The notes below the pieces were generated by a model. That model was not told the origin of the DNA. It did no database searches and was given only the letters and a program-made list of their open reading frames with translations. From the IMG/VR virus record IMGVR_UViG_3300049440_000066, positions 1-55,303 of that record: DNA of 55,303 nucleotides; one strand, given 5' to 3'. Positions 5,142 through 32,336 of this stretch are shown here, piece by piece. The DNA is from a virus (Duplodnaviria; Caudoviricetes). The stretch's first letter is position 1. Each line of letters opens with the position of its first letter. The position numbers and the translations under genes were made by a program.

Positions 5142-5749
5142 TGGCAAAGCCAATTCTGATATTTTCTAGAAAGAAACCCGGTCCCCCACCCACCCCTCGC
5201 TGTGAGCAGAAAAGGAAATGGAAATCAAATAGAAACGCAAATGGACTTTGCTCTACTTGTCCAAATAGCCTAGATCGAATCGGAGTTATGTGCTCTACCT
5301 GCGCCGACAAAATGAGAGAGCGTGGCATAAAAGAACGTAAGCGATTGAAGAAATTGGGTATCTGTCGCTCTTGTAGGAAACAGCCCGTAAGCAATATTGG
5401 CGACTATATGTGCGAAACGTGCAGGGCGACGCATGTGGCGGGGAATAGGGAGTACGTTGAGAGATTAAAAATACAGATTTATGAAGCCTATGGAAACAAG
5501 TGCGCCTGCTGCGGAGAAACGAATCCAGGGTTCTTTACTTTGGATCATGTTCGTCAAGATGGGGCTGCCCATCGGAGAGAACTATTCGGTAGGAATATCG
5601 CCAGTCCAGTAGTCATGTATAAGTGGATCGTCAAAAACAATTACCCCGATAGAATTAGAATTTACTGCTGGAATTGCAATATGGCGTCCTACCGTCATGG
5701 CGGCATCTGCCCACATGAAATTGAAAGAAATAAGAAAGCTCAAGCATGA
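5141..5749 (+). CDS. HNH-type endonuclease with Cys-rich N-terminus (likely homing endonuclease)
   Basis: YGNKCACCGE...TLDHV..DGAAHR...CWNCN; more AT-rich than its neighbours. Confidence 0.8.
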   Translation: MAKPILIFSRKKPGPPPTPRCEQKRKWKSNRNANGLCSTCPNSLDRIGVMCSTCADKMRERGIKERKRLKKLGICRSCRKQPVSNIGDYMCETCRATHVAGNREYVERLKIQIYEAYGNKCACCGETNPGFFTLDHVRQDGAAHRRELFGRNIASPVVMYKWIVKNNYPDRIRIYCWNCNMASYRHGGICPHEIERNKKAQA

Positions 5750-8220: not shown

Positions 8221-8534
8221 TGTCCGAAGACACTCCAAACCGAGCACGCGAAGCCTACGATGCAATGTGGGCGCAGTTCGACAAGGACGCCGAAACGAAC
8301 TGGACCGAAGCCTGCCGAAACCTCAGACGCGCCCTTTGCCAGAACGCCGGGGAGCTTGTGCCGCTTTATTTTAATAGCAAGGATCACATGGAAGCCGTTT
8401 TCAAGGTGAAAGAGCAGATGAAGTCTGCCGAGAGGCCGGAAGAAGCGGGCGACCCGGTGGAAACGATGTCGAAATACTTGCGCGGGGAGATTGAATTGTC
8501 GAGAATCCCTCTTGAAGCGCCGAGGAAAAATTGA
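8220..8534 (+). CDS. Hypothetical protein
   Basis: Coupled ORF before the portal gene. Confidence 0.7.
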   Translation: MSEDTPNRAREAYDAMWAQFDKDAETNWTEACRNLRRALCQNAGELVPLYFNSKDHMEAVFKVKEQMKSAERPEEAGDPVETMSKYLRGEIELSRIPLEAPRKN

Positions 8535-11214: not shown

Positions 11215-11298
11215 ATGGCGCGAAGAGGGAAACGCGGTTCGATGAATACGAAGATGGCTGGCCGGAATCCCGGCGCTCGCAAGGCTGGCCGCTACTAA
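11215..11298 (+). CDS. 27-aa basic microprotein MARRGKRGSMNTKMAGRNPGARKAGRY
   Basis: SD GGGAG 6 nt upstream; below the ORF-track cutoff. Confidence 0.65.
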   Translation: MARRGKRGSMNTKMAGRNPGARKAGRY

Positions 11299-11308
11299 GA
11301 GTTTGCAG

Positions 11309-11343
11309 TTGGGGGTCTCCCCTGAAAAACAGGGTGCCCAACT
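11309..11343 (+). other. Intergenic RNA hairpin (AGTTGGG...CCCTG-AAAAA-CAGGG...CCCAACT)
   Basis: Nested inverted repeats between two microORFs. Confidence 0.55.
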
Positions 11344-11360
11344 AGAAAGGAGACACTGAA

Positions 11361-11399
11361 ATGGCGCGACATCGTGGACGCAAAGCCAAGCGGCGTTAG
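11361..11399 (+). CDS. 12-aa protamine-like microprotein MARHRGRKAKRR
   Basis: Strong SD AAGGAG 8 nt upstream; begins MAR like its neighbour. Confidence 0.55.
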   Translation: MARHRGRKAKRR

Positions 11400-11477
11400 T
11401 TTTTGGCGCGGAAGGCACTAAGTATGGCGGCTGGGCGGGTGACGTGAAACACTCGCCCTTGCTGCACGGGAGAAGAA

Positions 11478-11675
11478 ATGGCAACGAATAACGGGCGTGA
11501 TGATCGGATCGACGTAGCGCAGATCGAGCGCAATCGCCGTTTGACCGAGGAATCGACACAGGAAACGCCTTTCAACGAAGAGATTATGGCTGGAGAGGCA
11601 AATTACGGCGAAGCACTTTACGACAACATGCCCGAGGACAAAGTTGGATTCATGCCGACGTGGAAAAGGAGATAG
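11478..11675 (+). CDS. Small acidic head-module protein
   Basis: SD GGGAG. Confidence 0.7.
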   Translation: MATNNGRDDRIDVAQIERNRRLTEESTQETPFNEEIMAGEANYGEALYDNMPEDKVGFMPTWKRR

Positions 11676-11677
11676 CG

Positions 11678-11860
11678 ATGGCGAAAAACGATTATTTCTC
11701 AAACTTTGACACTCCGTACCAGACGCAGCCGCCGAAGGGTGCTGCCGAGGGTGGGATTGATTACGGCGGGGTAACGGCTATTCCCGAAGCGAACGATCCG
11801 ATGGGTGTGATGCCGAAAGACGCGAAGCCCCGGAATATCGGGCCGTCCTCAAAGGAATAA
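11678..11860 (+). CDS. Small Pro/Gly-rich head-module protein
   Basis: SD AAGGAG before ATG 11678. Confidence 0.7.
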   Translation: MAKNDYFSNFDTPYQTQPPKGAAEGGIDYGGVTAIPEANDPMGVMPKDAKPRNIGPSSKE

Positions 11861-11865
11861 CTTGA

Positions 11866-12285
11866 TTGGCTTCGCCGCCAAATCCGTTGCAAGGGGCAGG
11901 TGCTCCGCCATCCGGCGGTGGGATGCTCGGGACGATTTTAGGCGCTCTGTCCAACAGGGCTTCTACGAATCCGGGACAGGATTACTCCGAGCAATCCGCC
12001 GCCTTACAGGGTGCCGACCCTTCGATGATTTTGCGGCAACTCGAACAGATCAACCAGGTGCTCGGCGTTCTGTTCGTCAAGACGTTTCAAACGCTGCCGA
12101 ATGTAGCAAATCAGATTAGCACGACGATGAAGGCTCTCAGCCGTGCAATTAAAGAGGGCCAGCAAGCCTCGAATGTCGGGGAAGTGGTAAAGAACTCAGA
12201 GAATCAAGGTTCACAGCCGATCAGTTTCAGTGCTGTACAGCAGGGGCAACCGCCGACCGGAAATGAAGCCCCCGCCAGCATGTAA
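11866..12285 (+). CDS. Head-module hypothetical protein
   Basis: TTG start with SD; Q/G/P-rich termini. Confidence 0.65.
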   Translation: MASPPNPLQGAGAPPSGGGMLGTILGALSNRASTNPGQDYSEQSAALQGADPSMILRQLEQINQVLGVLFVKTFQTLPNVANQISTTMKALSRAIKEGQQASNVGEVVKNSENQGSQPISFSAVQQGQPPTGNEAPASM

Positions 12286-12300
12286 AGGGAGAGAAAACTT

Positions 12301-13122
12301 ATGAGCGTCGATCAGATCAAAAAGTTTCTTGAGCAAGCGCAGGAATATCCTGACAACACGCCAATCCGAATCGGCGATCAGGAGATTCCTCTCGGTTCTC
12401 TTCGGCAACTGAATGCCTCGGAACGCAATACGCTTTCCGAACGGCTCAAGGGAGTCGAAACAAAGGAAGCCGAACTCAACACTCGGCAGCAATCCATCGT
12501 GGACCTCGCGCAGAAAGCGCAAGCGGCGTATCAGGCCGCCGAAGAAGCCCGTGCCAAAGCGGGACAGGCACCTCTTCCGAATCCCGGCGCGGACCCATTC
12601 GCCGATCCGTGGCTTGCTCCGGTGAAATCGGCTCTTGACGCACGCGACAAGAAGATCGAAGAACTCTCGAACCTTGCCAAGAACCTGCAATCGACGCTCG
12701 GGCAAGCGGCCACCGTGTTTATGAAGCGCGAGTGGCAGCGCGAGTACGACGGCCTGAACTTCGGCAAGCGCGACAAGAAGCCGAGTCGGGACGAAATCCT
12801 GAAGTACGCGAACGAAAACAAGATCATCGACCAGGACGGAATGCCATCGGTGCGGCTTGCTTGGGAAAAGATGTCGGAAACTGACCGCCTCGAAGAAGCG
12901 CGTCAAGCGGCACTGGAAAAGGGACGCGAAGAGGGCCGCATGGAAGCGATGGCCGCTCGGGTTACGCCTCCCGGAGTTTCTGGCATCGGGCAAGGGCCGG
13001 CAGCGGCTCCGAAGAGAATCGGTCCCGAGACGGACGTTCTCGGCGATATGTACGGAGAGGCTTTGAAAGACCCTGAACTGCGGCAACTGATCGAGCAGAT
13101 GGGTCCGGGAATGATGCAGTAA
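12301..13122 (+). CDS. Capsid scaffolding protein (putative)
   Basis: Coiled-coil E/K/A-rich protein directly before the capsid gene. Confidence 0.75.
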   Translation: MSVDQIKKFLEQAQEYPDNTPIRIGDQEIPLGSLRQLNASERNTLSERLKGVETKEAELNTRQQSIVDLAQKAQAAYQAAEEARAKAGQAPLPNPGADPFADPWLAPVKSALDARDKKIEELSNLAKNLQSTLGQAATVFMKREWQREYDGLNFGKRDKKPSRDEILKYANENKIIDQDGMPSVRLAWEKMSETDRLEEARQAALEKGREEGRMEAMAARVTPPGVSGIGQGPAAAPKRIGPETDVLGDMYGEALKDPELRQLIEQMGPGMMQ

Positions 13123-13153
13123 CGCTTTTTAATCGAAAAAGGAGCCATAAAAC

Positions 13154-14158
13154 ATGGCCTTCATTACAGGAACAGGAATCAACCAGCCTAGCGCGACACT
13201 GGTAAACACGCTCCAGTCGATCTCGCAGAAGATGATCTACCCGAAGGTTGCGGACCTCGTGTTCCAGCCGTCGCCGACATTCTCATTCCTGAACCAATAC
13301 GCCAAAAAGTACAATGCAGGGGCCGAAATCGTCTATCCCTTGCTGACCACGAAGATTACGACTCGTGGCGCGTATTGGGGCGACCAGCTTTTGCCGACTT
13401 CGGCGATTGACGCCATCCAACCCGCTGACCAGGTGTGGCGCGGCTATTTCCAGGCCGTGACGCTGCCGGTCATGGACATCGTTATCGGTCGCGGCGGTCC
13501 TGTGGGTCTCGATCTTGTGAAGACCTACGTGCAGGCTGCTGCCGGTTCGATGCTCGACATGCTGGCCGAAGCGGTCGCGGGCAATGCGCCGTTCAACTCC
13601 TCGATTGACCTCGATTCGATCAGCGCATGGGTACTGTCCACCACGAACACGATTGCCGGAATCAACCGCACAACGAACTCATTCTGGCAACCAGCGGCGA
13701 ACCAAGCCATCGGCGGACACCTCACTCCGATCAAGCTCTTGCCGGCGTACTTCCTGACGACTTTCGGCTATGACGAGCCGAACCTGTTGATTCTGAACAA
13801 CACTGACTTTGCGAACTTCGAGGGACAGTTCACGCAAAACTCGAACGCCTCGGCATCGACGACCATTATCCGCGCGAGCGACAATTACGCGGACACGGCC
13901 CCGATCCAGACTTCCTTCCGGTATCACATGCGGTTCAAAAATGCGGTAGTCCTTGCGGATCAACACTTTCCAGCAGGAACCGGTTACCTGCTGAACACGA
14001 AGTACATCTGGATGATCTATAATCTTGGCAGTTATTTCCGCATGACTCCGTGGATTATGCCGTCGAACCAGGACGTTATCACCGCGAGGATTCACTTGAT
14101 CGCGCAACTCGGCTGCAATCGTCCTTTGGCCCAGGTTGCGCTCACGACTTTGAGCTAA
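13154..14158 (+). CDS. Major capsid protein
   Basis: 334 aa with strong SD, after the scaffold gene; GINR...FWQ, V.D...P.GT.YLLNT, LGCN.P..Q motifs. Confidence 0.85.
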   Translation: MAFITGTGINQPSATLVNTLQSISQKMIYPKVADLVFQPSPTFSFLNQYAKKYNAGAEIVYPLLTTKITTRGAYWGDQLLPTSAIDAIQPADQVWRGYFQAVTLPVMDIVIGRGGPVGLDLVKTYVQAAAGSMLDMLAEAVAGNAPFNSSIDLDSISAWVLSTTNTIAGINRTTNSFWQPAANQAIGGHLTPIKLLPAYFLTTFGYDEPNLLILNNTDFANFEGQFTQNSNASASTTIIRASDNYADTAPIQTSFRYHMRFKNAVVLADQHFPAGTGYLLNTKYIWMIYNLGSYFRMTPWIMPSNQDVITARIHLIAQLGCNRPLAQVALTTLS

Positions 14159-14188
14159 GAACGATCTGATTCTTTTAAGGAGCCTTCG

Positions 14189-14695
14189 ATGGCCTTGAAT
14201 ATTGGAGTTGAACGTACATTCCCAGGAGCAGGCGTATCCACACGCCAAACGATCCAGACCGTCACCGGACTGGCGATTACCTCGGGAACCACGTATTACC
14301 TTCCGGGAACTTCGCTGAACACGGTGGTCGGACTGCTTCAGCCGACGGTCACGATTTGCAAAGTGCGCGTGAAGATTTACAACGGCGCTGGAACCTCGCC
14401 CACGCTCACCAAATTGCAGATCATGGGCTATGACGGGACGAACTCCGTGGTCATCGCGGACTGGAACTTCTCCACCGCCGTCACGCTCTCGACGACAAGC
14501 TGGTTTGACGGATTTGCCTTCTGCATGGCGGATACGGCTACCGGAGCGACGAGCGGCGGCGCGGTCGGCCAACTCATCAGCGGGTCGAGCGCCACGTCCG
14601 GCAACGGCGGAATGATCGCCGTGAAGATTATCCCGACGCTTGGCGGCACTTCACCGGCGGCTACGATGGACGCGGAAATCTTCGGCCTCATTTAA
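14189..14695 (+). CDS. Capsid decoration/minor structural protein
   Basis: T/G-rich beta-type protein immediately after the major capsid gene; SD AAGGAG. Confidence 0.6.
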   Translation: MALNIGVERTFPGAGVSTRQTIQTVTGLAITSGTTYYLPGTSLNTVVGLLQPTVTICKVRVKIYNGAGTSPTLTKLQIMGYDGTNSVVIADWNFSTAVTLSTTSWFDGFAFCMADTATGATSGGAVGQLISGSSATSGNGGMIAVKIIPTLGGTSPAATMDAEIFGLI

Positions 14696-14714
14696 GCCGA
14701 AGCTAAATTTCTCC

Positions 14715-14775
14715 ACTGGTCGGCAACGGGCCGGGCTAGGCTTCCCTCAGAGCTTGGCTTGGCCCGTACCAGTTT
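14715..14775 (+). terminator. Long stem-loop after the capsid genes (terminator or processing site)
   Basis: 17-bp stem 14726-14742/14751-14767 (4 G-U pairs), outer ACTGGT/ACCAGT, then TT. Confidence 0.65.
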
Positions 14776-14786
14776 AGGGGCACGAA

Positions 14787-14972
14787 ATGCCAAATGATCT
14801 CTACAAGAAAGCCGATGACAAGACTCCATTCCGGCCCTTGCTCGACTCTCCTGCGGACCCCGACCCGCAAAGGACTCTTGGCATACCGGATCGGGATGTA
14901 GAACGGGCGCGTCAAGTAGCGCGTGAGGCCGGAGCGTACAGAACGACAAGCAGGAGAAGCGCGAGACGCTAA
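14787..14972 (+). CDS. Small protein with Arg-rich C-terminus (...RRSARR)
   Basis: 61 aa, abuts the next gene. Confidence 0.6.
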   Translation: MPNDLYKKADDKTPFRPLLDSPADPDPQRTLGIPDRDVERARQVAREAGAYRTTSRRSARR

Positions 14973-15167
14973 ATGGCAACGACAAGAAACTTACGGAAGG
15001 CCGTCCGCGACGAAGAGAAGGCCGTGCAGGATTACCAGCGGTCGGCAGACACGGCGCAATCGGAAGATAAGCCTGTCACAGCGCGGAAATTCAGGCATGT
15101 TCGCAAGGAAGAAAAGCAGCACAAGCGGGAATTTAGCAAGCTGCTGAAAAGAACTTCGAGGCGCTAA
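14973..15167 (+). CDS. Half-rubrerythrin/ferritin-like two-helix protein with basic tail
   Basis: NL..A...E..A...Y...A..A..E....A..F.....EE..H pattern; ends KRTSRR. Confidence 0.7.
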   Translation: MATTRNLRKAVRDEEKAVQDYQRSADTAQSEDKPVTARKFRHVRKEEKQHKREFSKLLKRTSRR

Positions 15168-16427
15168 GTGGCTACAACTCCCATTGCATTGTTCACAGGT
15201 TCGCTCATCGGTGACGTGCTCGTACAGGCCCGCGAAACCGTACCGGATATGCCTCCGAGTTTGCCTGCTCCAGTAGCGGTGGCTGTGGTTACGACTCCCG
15301 GAACTGGCACGCTCGCGGCTGGCACGTATTTCGTCGAAGTGACGCAATGGAATCAATGGGGCGAAACGCTTGCCTCGACCGAATCTCTCCAACTTACGGT
15401 TCTAGCGACAAACGGCATTCAGATCACGTCGGCCTTGCAGGTGGGCGCGACCAAGATTCGAGCATATCTCACTCAGGTCAATGGCTCATCGGGAAGCGAG
15501 TCTCAGTATGTCGAATCCACCGTATCGCCGTTCACGATCCTTGCGAATCCGGTGCTTGCCGGCAGTCCTCCGGTACGCGGTACGGCATGGCTTCCCGACT
15601 CGGATGGCGGCTTTATCTCGGCAGGAGCGATTTACAGGTGGCTGAACGCAGGGCTTGAAATCATCGCTCGCGGTACAGGGGGATTCCAAGACTATTCGGC
15701 CATCGGCTCGACCATCAATCAGCCGCTTTATCAGATTCCCGCGAACTGGAACTCGATCACCGCAATCTGGTACGACGGTTACTGGATGACGGGCGGCGAT
15801 CCTGGCTACTTCTGGAAACGCAACTCGATCACCAGCCAAGTGCTTGCAAATGCACATATTTCTCACAACGGTTCGCGCACGATTCTCGAAGTGTACCCGC
15901 AACCGGCCAGAACTTCGCTCGTCACGACTCTGGCAGCGCCAATGAGCACTACGGACACGACAGCGACACTTACGAGCGCGGCTTTTGTTCTGCCGTTTGG
16001 ATTCGTTTCTATCGGTTCAGAGATTATGGCCTATGCGACGATAAATGGAAATCAGTTGACGGGCCTCATCCGGGGACTTGGCGGAACAAGTATCATCGCG
16101 CATGTCGCAACCGAAGTAGCGACGGAATGCAACATCGCATGGATGGGCAAACGGCAATCGACGCAGACCTATACGCCCGGACAATCTACAGCAACTCTTC
16201 CGATTGTTTCGGGATGGGATCAGCTTCTCATTTCATATATTGCAGGACGGGCCAAGATCGTCGAGCATGATTTACAGTCGATGAGTGCATTCAATCAGGA
16301 CATGGAAAAGCAGGTAAAAGGTTGGGCGCAAACGGCGGGATCGGTGGTTCGCAGAAGGCAAGTGGGAGGACCGAGCAAGCCTGGAGTGTACTTCCCAGAC
16401 GTTGCGGGAGGTATTCTTATCCAATAA
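15168..16427 (+). CDS. Head-tail adaptor-like protein with inserted beta domains
   Basis: Position; IYRWLNAG, YQIP.NW, LEVYPQP, P...WDQLLISY core, plus an FN3-like GTLAAGTYFV...GETLAS insert. Confidence 0.65.
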   Translation: MATTPIALFTGSLIGDVLVQARETVPDMPPSLPAPVAVAVVTTPGTGTLAAGTYFVEVTQWNQWGETLASTESLQLTVLATNGIQITSALQVGATKIRAYLTQVNGSSGSESQYVESTVSPFTILANPVLAGSPPVRGTAWLPDSDGGFISAGAIYRWLNAGLEIIARGTGGFQDYSAIGSTINQPLYQIPANWNSITAIWYDGYWMTGGDPGYFWKRNSITSQVLANAHISHNGSRTILEVYPQPARTSLVTTLAAPMSTTDTTATLTSAAFVLPFGFVSIGSEIMAYATINGNQLTGLIRGLGGTSIIAHVATEVATECNIAWMGKRQSTQTYTPGQSTATLPIVSGWDQLLISYIAGRAKIVEHDLQSMSAFNQDMEKQVKGWAQTAGSVVRRRQVGGPSKPGVYFPDVAGGILIQ

Positions 16428-16433
16428 TAATTT

Positions 16434-19259
16434 ATGGCCTACCAACCACAACTGTCCGGGCCTTTCTTAAAAGGCCTCGTCGCGTCCAATCAGCCTCTCG
16501 CGCAGCCGAAAGGCTCGTTTCCGCGTGGCTCGAACCTTGTGATGATGGAACGTGGCGCTCTGACTCCGTGCGATGGGTCGGGAATCATCAACTGGTTCAA
16601 TGGAGCGGTGCAAACGAATGTCGGGCGTTTCATGTCCACGTTTCTTTATGAGCCGACCGGAGTGAATCCGTACTATCTGGCGATTAAGCAGGCGCTTGAC
16701 GAGCATCTTGGAGCACCGCATATCAATTCAGCCACAGCATCGACAGGTGGCACGCTCTCTTCAGGAACGACCTATTTCTACAAGATCACGGCACTTGATG
16801 GCGTTGGCGGGGAAACGACAGCTTCCAATGAGGTAAGCGCGACACCCTCCGGCGGCAATTTGTCCGTAACTCTTGTGTGGAATGTCGTGCCGAACGCCTT
16901 TGGCTATAACATTTATCGGGCGACTTCTTCTGGTGCCGAAGTCTTGGTCATAGGAACAAAATTCCCTGCGCTTCAGCCGAATCCTTTGACCGCAACCGTG
17001 ACATTTATCGACGACGGAAGCGGGTCAGTCGCTCCTCTGACCTTTACGATCACTACGGCAACCCGTCTAAGTACCAATACGAACCAGATATTTCTTACTA
17101 CCCAACCGCCTTCTACGATTCTGAATCAATTAGCTACTGTTTCAGGAAATTCCGGCTCTGTTTTCAACAGAACCGGACGTATTATTTCCATCGGAACAAA
17201 TTCGGTAGTGCAACAAGTCAGTTCTATTCCATTCGCTCCCGGTACTGGGACTGGTGGAACATTGACTGTATCGGGGGTAGGACCGCCGATTGCCGACACT
17301 ACGCAGCAAACAGTGCTATTCCAAATGCCAGGTGGAGTAGTTCCAGTCACCTATAGCGATTCCAATATTGTCGCTTTCTATCCAGCTTCCATCGGCACGC
17401 TTGGACAGGTTCCGACTGGTGGATCGGGCGGAAGTGGAACAACTGGTCCTGGCATTAACGGGCAGGGCAGTTCCACGCCTTCTGGTGGTGTTGCGGGCCT
17501 CGTAGGTCCGTTGCCACAATTCAAGCAATTTACGAATCGCGCCGTAATTGCACTTGGCAACGGTTTCTCGATGCAACTGTTTTGGGATTCCACAGGCAGC
17601 CCGGTGAATACCGCCCCTACGGGACCGATTGCTTCCGTGGCTGTGTCGAACGACCAGGTAACTGTGACTGTAGCGGCATCCGTGACACTGAGCACGACCG
17701 ATCCTACAAAGAATGGATTCATGCCCGTCGGAACAAACGTCATCCTTTCGGGGATGAGCGATGCAACCTACGATGGCGTGTTTCCAGTCATTTCGGTAAC
17801 TCCTGGCGCTGGCGGAACATTCGTAGTCCGAAATCCTACCGCATCTGGTGGAGCATCAACGGGCACATTCACTGTCTCGACGACTCCGATCATCAGTACC
17901 TTCACTCCTTCTTTTCCGGCATGGACAGCAAGCACCGCTGTTGCCGCCGGCGACGTGTACGTTCCGAAAACGCAACCCGGAGCGGCAAATATCTACATCG
18001 TAGCAACACAGGGCGGAGTTACTGGATCGGTCGAACCGACTTGGCAGGCAGTTACCGCTACAGGCCAGCATTTTCCTACAGGCAACATCGCCGATGGAAG
18101 CGGTGTGATCTGGCAGGAGGCTGGCTACCTCACCTCACCTCAACCCCCCGGCGCGGGGCATATCGAAATCTACGCAGGATCGCTGTGGGCCTTAAATACA
18201 TCCCCAACGAACACAACGAATGGACTCGATGGCCCCACCGCTCTGAGGATGACGAACACAAATGATCCCTTTGGTTGGAACTCGGTCAATCAGGCGTTTC
18301 TCGACAAGGACGATGGTGCGGAAGGGATGGGCCTCGGCAAATTCACGATTACGGCGCTCGGGATTCCGCCCGAAGGCTCGCTCATCGCCTTCAAATACCG
18401 CGTTCCCTATCAGATCATCGGGGTATTCGGCGCAAACAACTTTGCGATTCAGCCTGTTTCCTCGGACATGGGATGCCTTGCTCCGAGAACGATTCAATTC
18501 GTTCCGGGCTACGGTCTTGTGCGTTACTGCCATCTCGGATACGCGGTATTCAATGGGTTCAAGGATGAAGTTATCAGCGAGCAGATCAGGCCCTACCTGT
18601 TTCCGGTGAACGACTTCGACGCGCAAGACATTACCGTGGCCGATGCGAACTACATTCCGCTGTCCTGGGGAGCGCAGACCGCGAATCCTCCCATGTACGC
18701 GATAGCTGTTCCGATTGGAAACAGTGGCGGGCAGTTGACGCGCATATTCCTGTTCGATTTGATTCTGAAATGCTGGGCCGCGCCTGTCGATCTGCCCTTC
18801 CCGATTGGATGCATGTCTCAGGTTCAGCCGGTCACATCGAATCCTTTGACGATCATCGGTGGATTTAATGATGGAGCCTTGCAACGCTGGCAGGCCGGTG
18901 ACACGAACTGGTATACAGGCGGCGGAGTATCGGCAGCAGCCGTTTTGTGGTCGAAGAGAACTATTACGGTCGCCTCACAGGATTCCAGCCAGCGCGTTTG
19001 GGCAAGAAGGCTGATTATCCGAGGCACGAATGCAGGAGCAAGCGGAAAGATTACGGTGCAGCCTCGCGTTTCCGGTGTGTCGCAGGCTGCGGTTCAGTAT
19101 AGAATCCCTGCGAGCGGAGACTTCGACCTATTCGCCGACGTGGGACTTACCGGATTGCGATTCGACGCGGACATTAGCGGCACCGTGCATGTCGAGATTG
19201 ACGGAGAGACTTGGAACATAGAACCAAGACCTTCGGGCGTTCCAGTTGGAGCTATTTAG
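16434..19259 (+). CDS. Tail nozzle/stabilisation protein (P22 gp10/T7 gp12-like) with FN3-like and other inserts
   Basis: F.KGL start, beta-propeller-like SLIAFK, MGCLAPRTI, ISEQIRP; YFYKITA...GYNIYR insert. Confidence 0.7.
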   Translation: MAYQPQLSGPFLKGLVASNQPLAQPKGSFPRGSNLVMMERGALTPCDGSGIINWFNGAVQTNVGRFMSTFLYEPTGVNPYYLAIKQALDEHLGAPHINSATASTGGTLSSGTTYFYKITALDGVGGETTASNEVSATPSGGNLSVTLVWNVVPNAFGYNIYRATSSGAEVLVIGTKFPALQPNPLTATVTFIDDGSGSVAPLTFTITTATRLSTNTNQIFLTTQPPSTILNQLATVSGNSGSVFNRTGRIISIGTNSVVQQVSSIPFAPGTGTGGTLTVSGVGPPIADTTQQTVLFQMPGGVVPVTYSDSNIVAFYPASIGTLGQVPTGGSGGSGTTGPGINGQGSSTPSGGVAGLVGPLPQFKQFTNRAVIALGNGFSMQLFWDSTGSPVNTAPTGPIASVAVSNDQVTVTVAASVTLSTTDPTKNGFMPVGTNVILSGMSDATYDGVFPVISVTPGAGGTFVVRNPTASGGASTGTFTVSTTPIISTFTPSFPAWTASTAVAAGDVYVPKTQPGAANIYIVATQGGVTGSVEPTWQAVTATGQHFPTGNIADGSGVIWQEAGYLTSPQPPGAGHIEIYAGSLWALNTSPTNTTNGLDGPTALRMTNTNDPFGWNSVNQAFLDKDDGAEGMGLGKFTITALGIPPEGSLIAFKYRVPYQIIGVFGANNFAIQPVSSDMGCLAPRTIQFVPGYGLVRYCHLGYAVFNGFKDEVISEQIRPYLFPVNDFDAQDITVADANYIPLSWGAQTANPPMYAIAVPIGNSGGQLTRIFLFDLILKCWAAPVDLPFPIGCMSQVQPVTSNPLTIIGGFNDGALQRWQAGDTNWYTGGGVSAAAVLWSKRTITVASQDSSQRVWARRLIIRGTNAGASGKITVQPRVSGVSQAAVQYRIPASGDFDLFADVGLTGLRFDADISGTVHVEIDGETWNIEPRPSGVPVGAI

Positions 19260-19260
19260 G

Positions 19261-19656
19261 ATGGTGACCGTTCGCACACTACGAGAGGACGAACCGTTTC
19301 CACAGCATCTCGGAACTGGCTTCGAGGCTATGCCTGTGATGAAGTCGTTTTGCTGGGTCGCCGAGCACGAAGGCCGGATAGTAGGAATGTTGATGGCAGC
19401 GCCGTGTCACGGACTTGCTTTCTTTGTGCGGCTGCGCGTTGATAAAGGCGCACCGATTTCGGTTACGTCTATCTTGTTTCGGAAGTGCATCAAGGATTGC
19501 GAGAAGCGAGGACTCAAGGGATATTTCACGTTTATCGATCCATCGCTTGACCTTGAGAGAAGGATGATTTCGATTTGTCATCGAGCGAAAGGGTTCCAGA
19601 TTCCGTCCATGCAAGTAGGCCTTGTAGGACGGATCGAGGATGCAGCGAGGTTCTAA
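19261..19656 (+). CDS. GNAT-fold protein of the podovirus tail module
   Basis: VRTLRED, CWVAEHEGRIVG; lies between the nozzle and ejection-type genes. Confidence 0.65.
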   Translation: MVTVRTLREDEPFPQHLGTGFEAMPVMKSFCWVAEHEGRIVGMLMAAPCHGLAFFVRLRVDKGAPISVTSILFRKCIKDCEKRGLKGYFTFIDPSLDLERRMISICHRAKGFQIPSMQVGLVGRIEDAARF

Positions 19657-20096
19657 TGCCACAGATTATTCCAGCAATCGTAGGGTTTTTGGCTGCAAAC
19701 GCTCCCGCCATCGGAGCAGCTTCGGCGATTGCCGGGGCGGGAACATCTATTGGAGAGGCCATCGCTAATAGGGGCGGACCAGCTACGCCAACGACTCCAA
19801 CGGCTCCAACGGCTCCAACGCCTACACCACCGAACTTAAATCAACTTTTGCAGGAACGGCAATTAGTTGGAAGTCAGGCTTCCAATCTGGAAAGCGCCAC
19901 ATCAGGAGCGGCTGGACCGGATTTTCTCAAGTTGTTTGCGCCATTCCTTGCAGGCATATCGGGTCAACCAGGGGCAAGCGGAGCAGGGACATACGCAGCA
20001 AATCAGGCTTGGGCGCCGGCGAACAGCCAGCCAACAAATGCGGCAGTACAGGGGCAACCAGTAAATTTGAGCGATTTCATCAGTAGCAACACATAG
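19656..20096 (+). CDS. Internal virion/ejection protein (putative)
   Basis: A/G-rich hydrophobic N-terminus and Pro-Thr linker. Confidence 0.6.
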   Translation: MPQIIPAIVGFLAANAPAIGAASAIAGAGTSIGEAIANRGGPATPTTPTAPTAPTPTPPNLNQLLQERQLVGSQASNLESATSGAAGPDFLKLFAPFLAGISGQPGASGAGTYAANQAWAPANSQPTNAAVQGQPVNLSDFISSNT

Positions 20097-20104
20097 GCGG
20101 TCAA

Positions 20105-20761
20105 ATGAGCGAAGTACTTGGAAATATCGGAAACTTCTTTAGTAGCGCAGCAGGTAAGGGGCTCGGTGAAATTGCTGGCCTCGGAGCGACTGGGGCTGGA
20201 CTCGTCGGCAATCTCGCGGCGGATCGGCAACGCTCTAAAGCTGCGAAACTGGCTCAAGCGAACGCCAATCTGACGCCCGCGCAACTCGCTGGTCGGGTGA
20301 ACGCAGCTACGCTTCCCTTGAATGCCAATCTCGTCCAGGCGATAACCGGCAACGTCAACGCGAACATGGCCGAGCAGGGATTGTCGCAAGCTCCGGGACT
20401 TCAGGCTGCGGCTATCGCTCAGGGGCTTGCAGGACCGGAACAGGCGCAACAGCAGGCCGCGCTTCAGCTTGTGATGAGGCAACTTGGATTGCCGGCGGAA
20501 TTTGCATCGACAATCCCGCCAAACTCTCCACTTGCGCCTCTGATTGCCATGCTGATGAAGGGATTCGGAACGCCTGGGAGTCCAGTGACAGGGAAATCAA
20601 TTACTGGTGGAGCGCCTGGTAGTTTCCCTACTATGCCATTTCCCATCGAAGCAGCAGGCGCGATGCCAAGTCCAAATATGCCGACTGATTGGCTCGGCCT
20701 CACTCCGAATCAACAGAACTTACCGCCGGACATGACACCTCCCGACATTGGAGGCTTCTAA
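20105..20761 (+). CDS. Internal virion/ejection protein (putative)
   Basis: G/A/Q-rich, with AEQGLSQ-type motif. Confidence 0.6.
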   Translation: MSEVLGNIGNFFSSAAGKGLGEIAGLGATGAGLVGNLAADRQRSKAAKLAQANANLTPAQLAGRVNAATLPLNANLVQAITGNVNANMAEQGLSQAPGLQAAAIAQGLAGPEQAQQQAALQLVMRQLGLPAEFASTIPPNSPLAPLIAMLMKGFGTPGSPVTGKSITGGAPGSFPTMPFPIEAAGAMPSPNMPTDWLGLTPNQQNLPPDMTPPDIGGF

Positions 20762-21720
20762 TGGGCTGGTTCGGAAGAGGTATCGGAGACTTCGGATCGC
20801 AAGTCGGCCAAGGGTACGACATAAACCTCGGCTGGAAGGAACGTCTTCAGCAGATGGCGATGGAGCAAGCCCGTCAGAAGCTCGCCGATCTGAAAGGCCC
20901 ACTTGAACTCCAAGAACTTCAGCAGCGCATTAAGCAAATGGGCCAGCCGCAGCCAGCCGGAATCGTCAAAGGACCGGGCGGAGAGACTTCGGGCGTGACG
21001 TTCGACCCAGCTACGAGCACGTATTCGATCAAGACGCTCATCCCCGGTGCTGCACCTGAACCTAAATTCCCGACCTTACAGGCAGCAGCAGCGTATTACA
21101 CGCAGCACGGCGACTGGGAGAAGCTGAAGCTCATCAATGACGAAATTGACCGGAATAAACCACAGCAGAAAACCACAGAGGGGTTTTCTGATGTGCGCCC
21201 CGACATTCACGGTAGATTGTGGGGCTTCAATAAACAGACTAATCAATGGGAACTAGTCCCAGTGAATGCAAGGTTCCCGATTCCGCACGAAGGGCAGGGT
21301 AGCGCACCGGGAGACGTAGACGCCCTTGCATACGATATTGCAGCAGGGAAAGCCTTGCTTCCAGGAGGCAAGTTCGGCGCTCAAGTAGCGACTCGAATGA
21401 AGCAACTCGGACTTGAGCCGCCGCTTCGGAAACCTCCTAAACCAGTACCGCCGGATGTGCTGGCTATGCTCAACGGTCCTATTCCAAAGAATCCGACTCC
21501 AGAACAGAGTCGCAGACTTGCAGACGCGGCCGATCGGATGTTCGGGGGAACCGCCTACAAGCAAGATTTGATCGACCGTGGACGGCGTTCACCTTTACTT
21601 GGATTGCGTTCCCCCTACTCAGCGCAGGGGTACGACGAGGGCGAATACGCTTCCATCGTTAACCACCTAAAGGAAGCGGCTCAAGCACCGCCTAGCGATT
21701 TCAGTGAGGTAGTGAAGTAA
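20761..21720 (+). CDS. Internal virion/ejection protein (putative)
   Basis: MGWFGRGIG start, Q-rich coiled coil, syntenic position. Confidence 0.6.
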   Translation: MGWFGRGIGDFGSQVGQGYDINLGWKERLQQMAMEQARQKLADLKGPLELQELQQRIKQMGQPQPAGIVKGPGGETSGVTFDPATSTYSIKTLIPGAAPEPKFPTLQAAAAYYTQHGDWEKLKLINDEIDRNKPQQKTTEGFSDVRPDIHGRLWGFNKQTNQWELVPVNARFPIPHEGQGSAPGDVDALAYDIAAGKALLPGGKFGAQVATRMKQLGLEPPLRKPPKPVPPDVLAMLNGPIPKNPTPEQSRRLADAADRMFGGTAYKQDLIDRGRRSPLLGLRSPYSAQGYDEGEYASIVNHLKEAAQAPPSDFSEVVK

Positions 21721-23817
21721 ATGGCTCAAGACCAATACGCGGAATATGAATCCGTCCGGCGCAATCCTAAAACTGGACAGATGATCGGTCTGAAAAATGG
21801 ACAGTGGACGCCAATCGTGTCCCAAACGGCTGCTACTCCTGTGGCAGCACAATTCCCTACCGGAGCGATGCAGGCGAAGCCAGGCGGACCAATTCTGGAT
21901 GCTTTTCAGCAGCAGCATCCGATTCGTGCCATTCCTGCCACAATTCTTCAGTCATTCGGTATTGATCCATCCCAGGTTGAGGGGGCTAAGAGTTACATAG
22001 ATGCTCTCAAGGGTGCTGGGAGCGACGTAGCGAATGCAACTGGCGAACAGATGTTCGAGTCGATGATTCACGCTGGCCCTCTTGCTCCAGTGGACATGCT
22101 CCGCAAGGGAATCGAAGGAGTAGCCAATGGAATCGAGGATGGTAGCAAGCAGGCGTATGCCTCTTATCGCAATGGAGACAGGTTCGGGCTGACGCAAGGG
22201 CTAACCAAGGTCGCTTCATCGCTCGGGCAGCTTGCTCTTTTGAAGGAATCCAAGCCAGCAGTTGAAAAGTCTGTGGAATTAACAGGAAAAGGCGTACGTG
22301 CTGGGTTCCGAGCGCCACTTGGTATTGGTCCATCGGCTGAACGACTGGCTGCTGAAGATAGAGCCACAGAAGTTGCCGCAAACGAGCACGCCAATCGTGA
22401 GGCTGCACGCCAAATCGCAGAGAAAAATCAGGAAATAACGACTAAAAACATTCAATCTGTGTCCAATGCGAAACAAACCAGCGAAGAGGCTGTCAGAAAA
22501 ATAGAGGAGCAGAATGCTAAAGCACAAGCCGATTACGAACAGAACAAGCGAAGGATAGACGCCCAATACAAGCGCGACACGCAGAAATTCGAGCAGGCCA
22601 GATCGGGACAATCGCTCACTTCGCAGGGTCGTGGAACTCGTCCCTCGGTGACAAATGAGGCTGCGGGCGCGACAAGAGCGCGCCTGAACGCATGGTCGGA
22701 TAAGGTGGTAGACATCGCAGGGAAAACAAAAGCAAATCTAAAGGAATCCTTTAATAAACGCTATAACGCTTTCCGGGAAGCTATTTCCGACAAGGACGCA
22801 AACGGAAATTCTGTCCCTGCGAAAGTAAACTGGAGTCCTATTCAAGGGGCCGTCAAAAACGCAGAGGACAACATCCTGCAAGGTTCACCGGAAAGTATCA
22901 CTCTCTTCCGAAACATTATGAAAGAGGGTCCACAACTTGATGAGGCGAGCGTATTCCGTTCATCTCAAGGGAACGAGGCGGCGCAAAATCTAAAGGAACT
23001 GCTTCGTTCAAAGCAGATCGGTCCCAAGGGATTCGACAGAATGATGGCGGAACTTCACGCGCAAGGAGTTCCAACTGAAAATATTGAAAGTGCCCCGTCA
23101 AATACAATCACGAAAGGTCTTCAAATTCCCCACGAAGATGCTTGGGGCTACGCGCAAGAACTTAACGCCAAGTTGCATGGAGCGCAACTGCCGAGTGACG
23201 TGTACCGCGCCTTAACGAGCGTAAAAGAGGCCATTGATGAAGGACTCCAAGAAACTGCGGACCTAAAAAATGCTGGCGGGATATGGAAAACAATCCAAAA
23301 CGATTATAGCGAGTACGCGCAACGCTTTCTCGACAAGGACTCTCCGGCGTACAAACTGATGAATGCCACGAATCCAGAAGATCGGCTCTCAATTATCACT
23401 GGAAAGGAAGGGCAAAACCTTATTGACGCACTGCACAAGTATCGAGGTTTTGGGGGAGATACCGAGATTGCTGGAAAAATCAGGGCATTGCGTGCGGCTG
23501 GCTCCAAGATCGTTGACCAACTTACTGAGCCAGTGCGGGGAGAGTATCCAGGAGCGCCAACACCGAAGTCTCTTCCAACCGAGTCGTCATATCCTGCACT
23601 AACGCAACCGGAAACTCTCGATCCTTCCAAGTTGAAGTCAACGGAGCCATTCAGTCCCGAAGAGTGGCGCAAAGCACGTCTGCGGAAATACCAAGAGACG
23701 CTTGCAATGAGACAGCCACCGTCACAATGGCAGTTTTTGCAACTACCATTCTTTCGTGCGATTAGTGCGCTGTATTCAAATCCGGCGTTTGTGAAGATGG
23801 TTCTTGGGATTAAGTGA
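21721..23817 (+). CDS. Large ejection/internal virion protein (putative)
   Basis: 698 aa, helical; NPKTGQMIGLKNGQW N-terminal motif. Confidence 0.65.
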   Translation: MAQDQYAEYESVRRNPKTGQMIGLKNGQWTPIVSQTAATPVAAQFPTGAMQAKPGGPILDAFQQQHPIRAIPATILQSFGIDPSQVEGAKSYIDALKGAGSDVANATGEQMFESMIHAGPLAPVDMLRKGIEGVANGIEDGSKQAYASYRNGDRFGLTQGLTKVASSLGQLALLKESKPAVEKSVELTGKGVRAGFRAPLGIGPSAERLAAEDRATEVAANEHANREAARQIAEKNQEITTKNIQSVSNAKQTSEEAVRKIEEQNAKAQADYEQNKRRIDAQYKRDTQKFEQARSGQSLTSQGRGTRPSVTNEAAGATRARLNAWSDKVVDIAGKTKANLKESFNKRYNAFREAISDKDANGNSVPAKVNWSPIQGAVKNAEDNILQGSPESITLFRNIMKEGPQLDEASVFRSSQGNEAAQNLKELLRSKQIGPKGFDRMMAELHAQGVPTENIESAPSNTITKGLQIPHEDAWGYAQELNAKLHGAQLPSDVYRALTSVKEAIDEGLQETADLKNAGGIWKTIQNDYSEYAQRFLDKDSPAYKLMNATNPEDRLSIITGKEGQNLIDALHKYRGFGGDTEIAGKIRALRAAGSKIVDQLTEPVRGEYPGAPTPKSLPTESSYPALTQPETLDPSKLKSTEPFSPEEWRKARLRKYQETLAMRQPPSQWQFLQLPFFRAISALYSNPAFVKMVLGIK

Positions 23818-23940
23818 GGAAAATAAATCCCAAACAGAAACGAAGGCGTATGCGGAATAGCAACAAGCCCAAAGAAGGGCATAGGCCACGAAGGGCGCAA
23901 GTAATATTAGGAGAAGGTACGCAATCAGAAGATCAAGCAT
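23776..23940 (-). CDS. 54-aa membrane protein (moron, possible superinfection exclusion)
   Basis: MLDLLIAYLLLILLAPFVAYALLWACC...; own promoter immediately upstream; not in the ORF track. Confidence 0.6.
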   Translation of the reverse strand: MLDLLIAYLLLILLAPFVAYALLWACCYSAYAFVSVWDLFSSLNPKNHLHKRRI

Positions 23941-23946
23941 GAGGGA

Positions 23947-23976
23947 ACGCTACCACAAGTTAGGCATAGGTGTCAA
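23947..23976 (-). promoter_or_regulatory. Sigma70-like promoter TTGACA-18-TAGCGT with operator in the spacer
   Basis: 21/22 identical to 46931-46952. Confidence 0.7.
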
Positions 23977-23980
23977 CTAG

Positions 23981-24262
23981 ATGGCGACTGAAAAAGAACG
24001 CGCCATGATGTCAAAGACGCGCGGCCAAGTAGCGGCTGGGATGCGTCCCGGCGAAGAAAAGAGAGAGTTCATCGCCCGACAGGGAAGAGAAGAAGCCCGA
24101 GGCAGAGAGGACATGCAATCGCTCGAACAGGAAGCCTATCGGCAACGCAATGTCAACGCCGTGGAAGGCTCGATGAGGAAGGGTGGCAAGGTCCGAAAGA
24201 CTGGTTTATACCGATTACATCGCGGCGAGCGCGTGGTTCCGAAGAGAACGAGAAGGCGGTGA
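23981..24262 (+). CDS. Small basic protein (KGGKVRKTGLYRLHRGERVVP motif), ends KRTRRR
   Basis: 93 aa ORF. Confidence 0.7.
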   Translation: MATEKERAMMSKTRGQVAAGMRPGEEKREFIARQGREEARGREDMQSLEQEAYRQRNVNAVEGSMRKGGKVRKTGLYRLHRGERVVPKRTRRR

Positions 24263-24265
24263 GGG

Positions 24266-24427
24266 ATGCCGGGAACTGAACATTTCAAGAGTCCAGAATC
24301 TTACAGAAAATACAGGGCATTCACACATATCCATCATATTCCTACACATGCCCGCGAAGTGGTGGTCGGCGGGCGCAAGCATAAGGTAATTCACAAACGC
24401 GAGACGAGGAAAGGAAGGCGAAGATAA
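24266..24427 (+). CDS. 53-aa His/Arg-rich protein, ends RKGRRR
   Basis: MPGTEHFKSPESYRKY...; TAATG-coupled to the next gene; not in the ORF track. Confidence 0.65.
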   Translation: MPGTEHFKSPESYRKYRAFTHIHHIPTHAREVVVGGRKHKVIHKRETRKGRRR

Positions 24428-24639
24428 TGGCCCGAAAAAAGAAGGACAAGAAGTTCATCCAGAAAGCCACCGAGCGCATGGAAGAAAAAGGAACTGTGGG
24501 TAGTTTCGGCAAGGCCACACCCTCGAAGATTGAACACGCGAAGGAGCATGGCGGTCTTGAGAAGAAACGCGCCGTGTTCGCCCAGAATATGAAGCGTATC
24601 GCAGCGAAGCGTCACCATCGGAAGTCGAGTCGGCGATGA
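24427..24639 (+). CDS. Small basic phage protein (KKFIQKA...KKRAVFAQNMK), ends RKSSRR
   Basis: 70 aa, coupled. Confidence 0.75.
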   Translation: MARKKKDKKFIQKATERMEEKGTVGSFGKATPSKIEHAKEHGGLEKKRAVFAQNMKRIAAKRHHRKSSRR

Positions 24640-24713
24640 TCGCAAATAGCAAAAAGACGAGCGGTAGTGAGCAGGGCTACGGTCGGAAGCCGCGTCGATC
24701 TAAGAGGGCATGA
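24636..24713 (+). CDS. 25-aa basic microprotein MIANSKKTSGSEQGYGRKPRRSKRA
   Basis: ATGA overlaps at both ends. Confidence 0.45.
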   Translation: MIANSKKTSGSEQGYGRKPRRSKRA

Positions 24714-25897
24714 TGAAGAAACTGTTTCTAGTTGCGGCTTTGTTGTTCTTCCCCGCGTTGTGTCGGGCGCAGAACACAACTATCGTCGCCACGATCACCG
24801 ATCCGACGGGACGGTTCTATACGTTTCTCACCGGAAGCGCCTCGATCCAGTGTCCCGGCAATGAGCAACCGACCTTCAATGGTTCTCCTCTCGCTCGCAC
24901 TATCCCGATCACTGGCGGGGACGGAAATGGACACTTTACGCAAGTCCTTTGGGATACGAGTAAAATTCTTCCTGCTGGATGCACTTGGCGTTGGGCGATA
25001 ACGTGGCAAGACGGGATTACTAATTTCACAACCGGAAATATTGGAGGCGTGACAGGCACCGGGCCAGTCGATCTTTCTTCTGCCATCTCCGCATTTTCCG
25101 TCCCTCTTCCGAATACGGCAGGATTCGTTCTCGGCGTATCGGCTACAGCGCCTATTGTGTCCTCGATGGGAGTTGCGCCAGTAATTTCCTGTCCGACATG
25201 CACGACAAGTGCCGCTGCACTGACACTAAATCAGCTTATTCTCGGTGCTGGCTTGCAGGCCGAAGCCGCACTCGGAAGTCTCGGGACGACTACCACGGTC
25301 CTGCATGGGAACGCCGGCGGAGCGCCTTCGTTTAGTGCCGTAAATCTAGCCACTGATGTTACTGGATCATTGCCTGTCGGCGATCTGACCGGACAAATAC
25401 CAATCTCGCAGGTAGGGAGCGCCGGTCTAAGCGGAACGGCTCCCATTTCCATTGCTGCTACAGGGGCTATAAGTTGTTCGACTTGCTTAACCACAACATC
25501 AACGTCCGTTCCATGGGTTGCCATCTGTGACCAGTTTAATGCCGGTGGCAGTCAACTTGGTTGCTACGGCGGGTTTGCAAGCGGATCGCAGTCGATATGG
25601 GCAGAGACTATACTTCCAACAGCCCATACGTTGCTTCGTTTTACTATCTATATGACTGCTGGAGTAACAAGTTGTACGACATATCCAGTCATATCGTTTC
25701 GGGACGAAACATCAAATACGACTCTCGCGTCGCTAACGCTGCCAAATAGTGTTGGACCTGATTTTCTAGACTCTGGGATTCTTTCCGTCGCACTAACTTC
25801 TGGCGACACATTTTCCGTAAAAACAACGACTGCTGGAGACACGTGTGTGAATACGGTGGGTTATCAAAACTGGGAAGCAACGGCAATATACCAATGA
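24710..25897 (+). CDS. Tail-fibre-like protein with Sec-type signal peptide
   Basis: MKKLFLVAALLFFPALCRA|Q; repeated (S/G)ATAPI...ISCxTC; fibre-like GTTTTVLHGNAGGAPSF...L..DVTG.LP. Confidence 0.7.
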   Translation: MMKKLFLVAALLFFPALCRAQNTTIVATITDPTGRFYTFLTGSASIQCPGNEQPTFNGSPLARTIPITGGDGNGHFTQVLWDTSKILPAGCTWRWAITWQDGITNFTTGNIGGVTGTGPVDLSSAISAFSVPLPNTAGFVLGVSATAPIVSSMGVAPVISCPTCTTSAAALTLNQLILGAGLQAEAALGSLGTTTTVLHGNAGGAPSFSAVNLATDVTGSLPVGDLTGQIPISQVGSAGLSGTAPISIAATGAISCSTCLTTTSTSVPWVAICDQFNAGGSQLGCYGGFASGSQSIWAETILPTAHTLLRFTIYMTAGVTSCTTYPVISFRDETSNTTLASLTLPNSVGPDFLDSGILSVALTSGDTFSVKTTTAGDTCVNTVGYQNWEATAIYQ

Positions 25898-31975: not shown

Positions 31976-32336
31976 CGGTCAACTGATTTCACCAGCGGGT
32001 GGCCTTATGGCAACTGGTTATAGTGGCGCGGGCACAGGAAAAAACGCGCCTACCGAGGAGAACGTGCAAAATGTCGGACCAATACCCGAAGGATGGTATG
32101 ACATCGAAGCGCCGGAAAATTCACCTACGCACGGGCCATTTGCCTTACGCCTTTTGCCGGACGCCGGAAACGCCATGTATGGACGCTCTGAGTTCCTTAT
32201 CCACGGTGACAGTATCGAGCGCCCCGGCCAAGCGAGCGAAGGTTGTATTATTTTGCCTCGATTTGCCCGAGAAGCCATCTGGAACGGCGGGGATCACCGA
32301 TTGCAGGTAGTCAAGGAACTGCCGACCAAGACATGA
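31950..32336 (+). CDS. Tlde1/DUF2778-family peptidoglycan-acting protein (probable endolysin)
   Basis: [37 protein letters not shown]. Confidence 0.85.

Follow-up and report, generated by a model that had tools for sequence, protein, structure and literature searches.

Small, strongly basic proteins encoded among the virion genes of a tailed phage share a position-fixed run of Arg and Lys residues at the C terminus. The phage is represented by IMG/VR record IMGVR_UViG_3300049440_000066 (Caudoviricetes), and the window referred to below is that whole record of 55,303 bases. Comparisons with related phages indicate that the shared C-terminal motif is real, that it is conserved in relatives, and that it is selected at the amino-acid level. 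One possible explanation, to which we assign a rough probability of 0.4, is that the proteins are virion-associated polycations and that the tail is an electrostatic anchor.

A conserved basic C terminus on unrelated small proteins

A first-pass annotation of the window had described eight open reading frames (ORFs) with such ends, and all eight were present on the + strand. They encode a 27-amino-acid (27-aa) basic protein ending in RKAGRY (positions 11215 to 11298, net charge +9), which has a Shine-Dalgarno (SD) site and no coupled downstream gene; a 12-residue peptide, MARHRGRKAKRR (11361 to 11399, net charge +7), which has a strong SD site, AGGAGA; a 61-aa protein ending in RRSARR (14787 to 14972), located in a variable gap between a 168-aa head-associated gene and an adaptor-like gene; a 64-aa protein ending in KRTSRR (14973 to 15167), referred to below as the half-ferritin; a 93-aa basic protein ending in KRTRRR (23981 to 24262, net charge +13); a 53-aa His-rich basic protein ending in RKGRRR (24266 to 24427, net charge +11); a 70-aa Lys/Ala-rich protein ending in RKSSRR (24427 to 24639, net charge +16); and a 25-aa basic protein ending in RRSKRA (24636 to 24713). 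The SD sites or coupled starts attributed to these ORFs were also found. The tailed proteins, with net charges of +4 to +16 and isoelectric points (pIs) of 10.1 to 12.0, are the only products in the interval from the scaffold gene to the tail fibers whose pI exceeds 10, and their bodies are basic throughout.

The bodies had been described as unrelated, and at the level of sequence this was correct: when the eight proteins were compared all against all by BLASTP, either complete or trimmed of the last eight residues, no pair fell below E = 0.05. The tailed proteins represent at least seven mutually unrelated families plus the 12-residue peptide. The 53-, 93-, and 61-aa proteins had no family match in Pfam, PHROGs, or NCBIfam, and the ESM Atlas offered no usable lead for the 93-aa or the 53-aa protein.

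The strict motif proposed in the first pass, [RK][RK]xxRR-stop, was enriched at C termini. In a six-frame count of the window it closed 8 of 1195 stop-to-stop segments on the + strand versus 0.27 expected from the internal frequency of the motif (Poisson P = 5e-10), and it closed none of the 1417 segments on the - strand. Six of the eight matches were ORFs already described and two were noise, one because it lacks a start codon and the other (31620 to 31757) a false ORF. The false ORF, which ends in KRNSRR, lies out of frame within an Endonuclease VII family gene (31496 to 31975, + strand) that matches its Pfam model with 64.3 bits (cutoff, 23.6). A looser rule, at least four Lys/Arg residues including two Arg among the last six, was weakly enriched in the window (17 observed versus 8.6 expected; P = 0.008).

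Cultured phages provided no DNA match to the record, and the capsid protein matched only three of them, at 23 to 25% identity. IMG/VR contained 29 related loci (L numbers) with capsid identities of 41 to 98%, and five complete relatives (G001 to G005) were compared with the window, for a total of six genomes. The strict motif was in excess in G001 (5 observed versus 0.43 expected) and not in G002 to G005, because the tails in those genomes end in RRK, RRS, or RRR. When small ORFs in the six genomes were compared by strand, ends with at least four Lys/Arg residues were found in 16 of 195 ORFs on the strand of the capsid gene and in none of 135 on the opposite strand. The ORFs for this comparison came from a crude codon-usage gene caller that missed several tail genes (the 61-, 53-, and 395-aa genes were missed) and that was used for control sets only.

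The related phages vary in two gaps, one after the 168-aa gene and the other after the large internal protein. The small ORFs found there mostly bear basic tails, including KRSGRR, KRSARR, KRGSRR, KRSSRR, RKSARR, RKSRRS, RGHRRK, RVSRRK, and SSGRRR, and the larger inserts, a LAGLIDADG-like gene and fiber-like genes of 99 to 205 aa, do not. When ORFs in the two gaps of 14 genomes or loci were defined by position, with a greedy choice that took some wrong frames, at least four of the last six residues were Lys/Arg in 17 of 32 ORFs shorter than 100 aa versus 2 of 11 larger ones. Even at a capsid identity of about 43%, L028 and L029 contain a small ORF with a basic tail in the first gap. At these two sites, relatives encode either the same small proteins or others that also bear such tails.

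A profile of 35 tail ORFs from the window and its relatives refined the motif to [KR](-6)-x-Ser(-4)-x-Arg(-2)-[KR](-1)-stop. Position -10 was Lys/Arg in 27 of the 35 ORFs; position -6 was Lys/Arg in 33, by means of at least six codons; position -4 was Ser in 21, encoded by TCG, TCA, AGC, or TCC; position -3 was Lys/Arg in 24 and otherwise Ser, Ala, or Gly; position -2 was Arg in 34; and position -1 was Lys/Arg in 26. The set of 34 tail ORFs used below for the spacing to the next gene still includes the false ORF at 31620 to 31757, which was excluded from the profile. The tail lists behind the Arg codon shares, the comparison of frames, and the charge of the bodies include it as well.

Six of the ORFs (encoding the 27-, 61-, 64-, 93-, 53-, and 70-aa proteins) are real genes, as shown by substitutions relative to their homologs, which are concentrated at the third codon position. 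For example, 10 distinct DNA sequences homologous to the 27-aa ORF had 129 differences at position 3 versus 46 and 37 at positions 1 and 2. The 27-aa protein had tblastn matches in 12 related loci at 63 to 96% identity, and L027 and L029 encode possible distant relatives ending in HRRRY. Homologs or paralogs of the 61-aa protein in L001 and L024 (two copies), L004, L009, and L017 have the common C terminus ...AGAYRKTxKRSxRR. The G001 homolog of the 93-aa protein is 66% identical and ends in KRSRRK. The 53-aa protein had 10 database relatives, and its homologs in G001 to G004 end in KRR, RRS, RRR, and RRK. The 25-aa protein found no relatives as a tblastn query. Relatives recognized by eye in G001 to G004 start with MFAKKxxGSQ and end in KRxSKR[AS] (G001, G003, and G004) or YAARR (G002), and by this comparison the 25-aa protein is a shortened member of a 33- to 45-aa family.

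The 12-codon micro-ORF encodes little more than the tail motif itself, as a separate peptide. It was recovered from 19 sources in 13 distinct DNA versions, 8 of which read MAR[RK]RGRHSKRK; the other 5 diverge further toward the N terminus. The peptide was retained despite many synonymous changes, with Arg encoded by CGN or AGR and Ser by TCN or AGY.

Overlap of the tail with the Shine-Dalgarno site of the next gene

The first-pass interpretation of a shared, position-fixed motif on small basic proteins of the virion gene block was sound in that the motif is conserved and selected. However, it missed the conserved Ser at position -4 and the fact that the tails nearly always directly abut the start codon of the next gene, with which the SD overlap comes. 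In 29 of 34 tail ORFs the next ORF (at least 24 aa) starts -3 to +4 nucleotides from the stop. Codon -2 was AGG in 22 of 35 tail ORFs and codon -3 ended in G in most, which generates GAGG or GGAGG 5 to 9 bases before the next start, so that tail codons coincide with the SD core. For example, the half-ferritin tail is encoded by AAA AGA ACT TCG AGG CGC TAA, followed by GTG at 15168, and the GAGG at 15158 to 15161 (+ strand) that is the SD core of the next gene is formed in frame by the last base of the Ser(-3) codon and the Arg(-2) codon. Thus, the last two or three tail codons double as the SD site of the next gene. The use of AGG for Arg(-2) and of a G-ending codon at -3 is attributable to the stop-to-start packing, which places the SD site in the tail. 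AGA and AGG accounted for 48% of the Arg codons in tails versus 22% in the bodies of the same proteins and 19.5% in long genes genome-wide, and therefore the exact ...R-R-stop reflects, in part, a reading of the SD site of the next gene.

A neighboring gene illustrates how far this effect may go. An acidic 65-aa protein (11478 to 11675, + strand; pI 4.6) ends in WKRR because the codons AAA AGG AGA overlie the SD site of the gene that follows. The ends differ in the likely counterparts of this protein in G004 and G005, and it represents a clean case of a basic end that results from a ribosome-binding site alone. It is conceivable that all of the tails arose in this way, with selection acting on a purine-rich gene end and an embedded SD site for translational coupling, and with the Arg/Lys tail as its passive reading. 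The close spacing of the next ORF, the AGG at codon -2, the doubled use of AGA and AGG, and the acidic neighbor all fit this explanation.

However, the SD overlap does not explain the tail by itself. The six genomes provided 146 other tightly coupled junctions as controls. An SD core is embedded in 92 of them and is read in all three frames, as Arg (21), Glu (41), or Gly (30), but ends with at least four Lys/Arg residues were found at just 4 of the 146. In a comparison of frames, 27 of 28 tails had the SD core in the Arg frame versus 21 of 92 controls, a comparison that is circular for the tails, which were selected for Arg ends, so that only the control half was used. Positions -6, -4, and -1 lie outside the SD core and yet are kept by means of many codons. 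The 12-residue peptide has the same register, R-H-S-K-R-K, with CGC, CGT, or CGG and never AGG for Arg(-2), and no start adjoins it, the next one being 11 to 79 nucleotides away. Furthermore, 80 viral loci with relatives of the 70-aa protein were retrieved, and among 57 distinct relatives from other phages at least four of the last six residues were Lys/Arg in 11 of the 37 that are coupled to the next gene and in 9 of the 20 that are not; the uncoupled relatives keep basic tails without AGG. The motif was therefore not lost where no gene follows, and conservation was of residues rather than of nucleotides only.

The half-ferritin, the 70-aa family, and the surrounding gene block

The 64-aa protein matched the Pfam families Rubrerythrin (30.2 bits; cutoff, 22.8) and Ferritin (27.9 bits; cutoff, 24.5). 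It also matched the NCBIfam encapsulin-cargo models EncB_fam (28.6 bits) and TIGR04535 (25.8 bits), without reaching the respective cutoffs of 90 and 125. The AlphaFold2 model, with a mean predicted local distance difference test score (pLDDT) of 93.3, is a two-helix hairpin (helices 2 to 30 and 34 to 63). It has the Glu on helix 1 and the Glu-x-x-His on helix 2 of a ferritin-like hairpin, and Glu14, Tyr21, His42, Glu47, and His50 are invariant in 24 short homologs. In Foldseek comparisons the model resembled halves of rubrerythrin and sulerythrin, with template modeling (TM) scores of 0.88 to 0.94, and EncB/EncC, with TM scores of 0.72 to 0.75; all E values exceeded 0.03, which is not surprising for a fold of this length. 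The sequence matches and the model together indicate that the protein is a two-helix di-iron half-ferritin with the architecture of encapsulin cargo. The tails of the half-ferritins, KRTSRR, KRGSRR, and KRSSRR, have no Leu, Ile, or Val in the last six residues.

No match to the 64-aa protein was found in cultured phages. A full-library profile search yielded 209 matches at E <= 0.001, many of them single hairpins of 55 to 95 aa, one of which ends in RRGGRR. Four very long database proteins, P0005 (1957 aa), P0006 (1338 aa), P0010 (939 aa), and P0011 (983 aa), each contained 6 to 9 tandem matches to the hairpin profile. Two short half-ferritins, P0047 and P0076, end in SLASLRKVKP and SLSSLRGKP, which resemble the GSLxIGSLK/R encapsulin targeting peptides in the available text of PMC10960027. 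Relatives of P0047 in viral contigs (L130 to L132) end in MLKKLK; other small basic proteins are encoded around them, and an 886-aa gene lies downstream. Scans for loci related to P0034 and P0076 were without result.

The 70-aa protein belongs to a larger family. It had no match in cultured phages but at least 247 relatives, all unnamed, that share a conserved core but differ in the basic tail. At least four of the last six residues were Lys/Arg in 58 of the 120 listed relatives, and across the wider family the basic tail is 2 to 37 residues long, its length and sequence varying freely. In 8 of the 15 viral loci sampled, neighboring genes matched families of head, tail, or packaging proteins, and members are often flanked by further small basic proteins. 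Another small basic family (MP..VMHKFK...KNRKQAIAIMLSEK...) was observed directly 3' of a homolog of the 70-aa protein in a number of unrelated viral contigs, namely L054 (4174 to 4377), L055 (4171 to 4383), and L057 (4166 to 4369). Small basic proteins seem to be clustered repeatedly in the structural modules of phages, and the size of the 70-aa family together with these clusters suggests that the phenomenon is common in environmental phages. The AlphaFold2 model of the 70-aa protein (pLDDT 63.6) was too uncertain for a structure search.

The virion gene block of the window occupies about 5.7 to 32.5 kb of the + strand. It includes genes for the large terminase (5746 to 7539; phrog_2, E = 1.9e-21), the portal (8531 to 10264; Pfam SU10_portal, 37.1 bits with a cutoff of 30), a 273-aa scaffold-like protein (12301 to 13122), and the major capsid protein (13154 to 14158; phrog_9953 major head protein, E = 1.1e-22), which forms the shell that had been proposed as the receptor for the tails. 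The 168-aa head-associated gene follows the capsid gene, and the block continues with the 419-aa adaptor-like gene, which had a weak SU10_adaptor match, and with genes for large tail and internal proteins. A 395-aa protein is encoded at the position of a tail fiber (24710 to 25897). It begins with a signal-peptide-like stretch, MMKKLFLVAALLFFPALCRAQ, that is kept in relatives (also G003 45980 to 47083 and G004 22472 to 24019) and that is odd for a virion fiber. The Endonuclease VII family gene, between the tail and lysis genes, probably encodes a homing endonuclease, and a 128-aa protein with a Tlde1 domain (31950 to 32336; 55.4 bits with a cutoff of 30.1) is probably a lysis enzyme that acts on the cell wall.

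In five relatives the capsid gene and the 168-aa gene are separated by an inserted LAGLIDADG-like gene of 162 to 165 aa (L001 7139 to 7627, L003 11032 to 11529, L007 2151 to 2639, L021 11031 to 11522, and L024 11018 to 11506); the window has no such insert, and the L001 copy scored 22.1 bits, slightly below the cutoff of 23.1. A GTG-started 42-aa ORF at 23814 to 23942 (+ strand) was set aside because it has no homolog in the relatives; its N-terminal half is very basic, its end is acidic, and it overlaps the stop codon at which the 698-aa gene ends. A scan for loci related to the 698-aa protein was without result, a comparison of the capsid profile with solved structures yielded nothing meaningful, and the window contained no Rfam family and no tRNA.

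Possible roles of the tail and comparison with known systems

The proteins are small, strongly basic, and encoded with virion genes, features by which virion core polycations can be recognized. If the tail is an electrostatic anchor, then the C-terminal arm would hold small proteins on a polyanion, most likely the phage DNA or possibly an acidic surface of the procapsid or scaffold. The anchored proteins might accompany the particle from within, as counter-ions or as cargo, and the half-ferritin could be a miniature Dps-like member of this cargo that handles iron or oxidants beside the DNA. The variable tail length in the wider 70-aa family and the basic bodies of the tailed proteins favor such general binding of polyanions over a specific docking peptide.

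Several considerations weigh against an electrostatic anchor. Phage DNA is threaded naked through the portal, and a protein that binds DNA would need its own way into the procapsid. The scaffold-like protein ends in GPGMMQ and has no such tail. The first 40 residues of the capsid protein include a single acidic residue, unlike the acidic N-arm that receives the P22 scaffold, as described in the available part of PMC9965877. The list of tail ORFs was picked for basic ends and includes close homologs, so that the profile counts overstate independence and describe the motif rather than test it. Moreover, the proteins might never become part of particles and instead have their targets inside the cell, in RNA, ribosomes, or the nucleoid.

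This last alternative, in which the tailed proteins are made late and bind host or phage RNA, ribosomes, or the nucleoid without being packaged, would account for the high Lys/Arg content, the Lys/Ala-rich helices, and the low-confidence or disordered models. However, such genes are consistently placed within head and tail gene blocks in many phage lineages, and none was found in the early region on the opposite strand, within the limits of the crude gene caller. We regard it as rather unlikely. The fixed register, conserved Ser, and lineage-specific motif do leave room for a specific docking site, and the tail could be, much as the first-pass annotation had proposed, a peptide that a defined site on the capsid, scaffold, or portal recognizes and that brings varied small cargo, the half-ferritin among it, into the procapsid. 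The register keeps a fixed distance from the free C terminus, Ser(-4) is drawn from both Ser codon families, and the free-standing 12-residue peptide has the same register. The exact motif is confined to this phage lineage, with other tails in the wider 70-aa family, and the genes adjoin the capsid gene and differ between close relatives, as would accessory cargo. One member has encapsulin-cargo architecture, the targeting peptides of Myxococcus ferritin cargo end in ...GSLRR with the same Ser-x-Arg-Arg (PMC10960027, in part), and the P22 scaffold binds coat protein through basic C-terminal residues (PMC9965877, in part). These points notwithstanding, a docking peptide is only a minor possibility. 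The tails are without the two or three Leu/Ile/Val residues that define the binding of encapsulin peptides, the scaffold-like protein has no such tail, a likeness of four residues can be chance, and bodies that are basic throughout and tails of such variable length are expected of nonspecific charge. A predicted complex of the capsid protein and the 61-aa protein scored 0.00 in a run without controls, and it counts neither way. With the evidence discussed above, the remaining alternative, that the tail is a by-product of translational coupling, is quite improbable.

If the tail does carry proteins into particles, then tailed phages would have a simple, transferable signal for loading small cargo, and a ferritin-like cargo encoded beside a phage capsid gene would bear on the origin of encapsulins and their cargo from HK97-fold viruses. 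Searches of the literature on phage internal Arg-rich proteins, phage or encapsulated ferritins, and ferritin-like virion proteins of phages found no such shared C-terminal tail and no phage half-ferritin cargo. Proteins of 12 to 93 residues that are so rich in Arg and Lys would be missed by tryptic proteomic workflows. In addition, a ribosome-binding site and a peptide motif can share codons, an overlap that can mislead motif hunting in compact operons.

There is an architectural likeness to the ferritin cargo of family 1 encapsulins (EncFtn and Myxococcus EncB/EncC), in which a two-helix di-iron hairpin of about 60 residues also bears a short C-terminal peptide and an HK97-type shell gene adjoins. 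The available text of PMC13669383 compares encapsulin cargo hairpins with phage scaffold hairpins, and no mention of a phage-encoded ferritin-like protein was found in it. The Myxococcus EncB/EncC peptides have a Ser-x-Arg-Arg end equal to that of the phage tail (PMC10960027, in part), a likeness that is a lead rather than evidence. Encapsulin cargo peptides are described in the same part of that source as binding through two or three hydrophobic residues (GSLxIGSLK type) and a salt bridge from the terminal Lys. The comparison with encapsulins made in the first-pass annotation thus holds for the architecture of one member and fails for the tail, which is polybasic and has no hydrophobic residues of the kind with which encapsulin peptides bind the shell pocket. 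The phage system differs further in that the 64-aa protein scores far below both curated cutoffs, in that the same tail is found on at least six other families, and in that the shell gene shares its strand and block with the large terminase and portal rather than belonging to a cellular operon without packaging genes. It would be a bold extension, and we think an unlikely one, that a portable C-terminal [KR][KR]-Ser-x-Arg-[RK]-COOH is an address label that loads interchangeable small cargo, including a half-ferritin, into an HK97-fold capsid, so that encapsulin cargo loading would have a counterpart, and possibly a relative, in viruses.

The C-terminal domain of the P22 scaffold has also been used to load foreign cargo into P22 shells. 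That domain binds the N-arm of the coat protein through Arg293 and Lys296, and binding is lost without the last 11 residues (PMC9965877, in part). The likeness is that a basic C terminus attaches electrostatically to the inside of the capsid, which for the phage is a proposal. In P22 a folded helix-turn-helix contacts an acidic N-arm, whereas the phage tail is 6 to 10 residues long. In addition, the N-arm of the phage capsid protein has a single acidic residue, and the tail is lacking on the scaffold-like protein.

Viral core polycations, such as adenovirus VII and mu, the internal proteins of T4, and protamines, are likewise small and rich in Arg and Lys, with Ser interspersed in the Arg runs. 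That the phage proteins also accompany the genome is our proposal. The T4 internal proteins have an N-terminal targeting sequence that is removed by the head protease; in contrast, the shared element of the phage proteins is C-terminal, and no protease family was found among 35 window ORFs (30 compared with Pfam and PHROGs and 7 with Pfam alone). Dps-type mini-ferritins are DNA-binding proteins with Lys/Arg-rich terminal tails that form four-helix bundles and assemble as dodecamers. The phage protein is half of such a bundle and must at least dimerize. However, it has the same combination of a di-iron ferritin-like unit and a basic tail, which would put iron or oxidant chemistry on the DNA.

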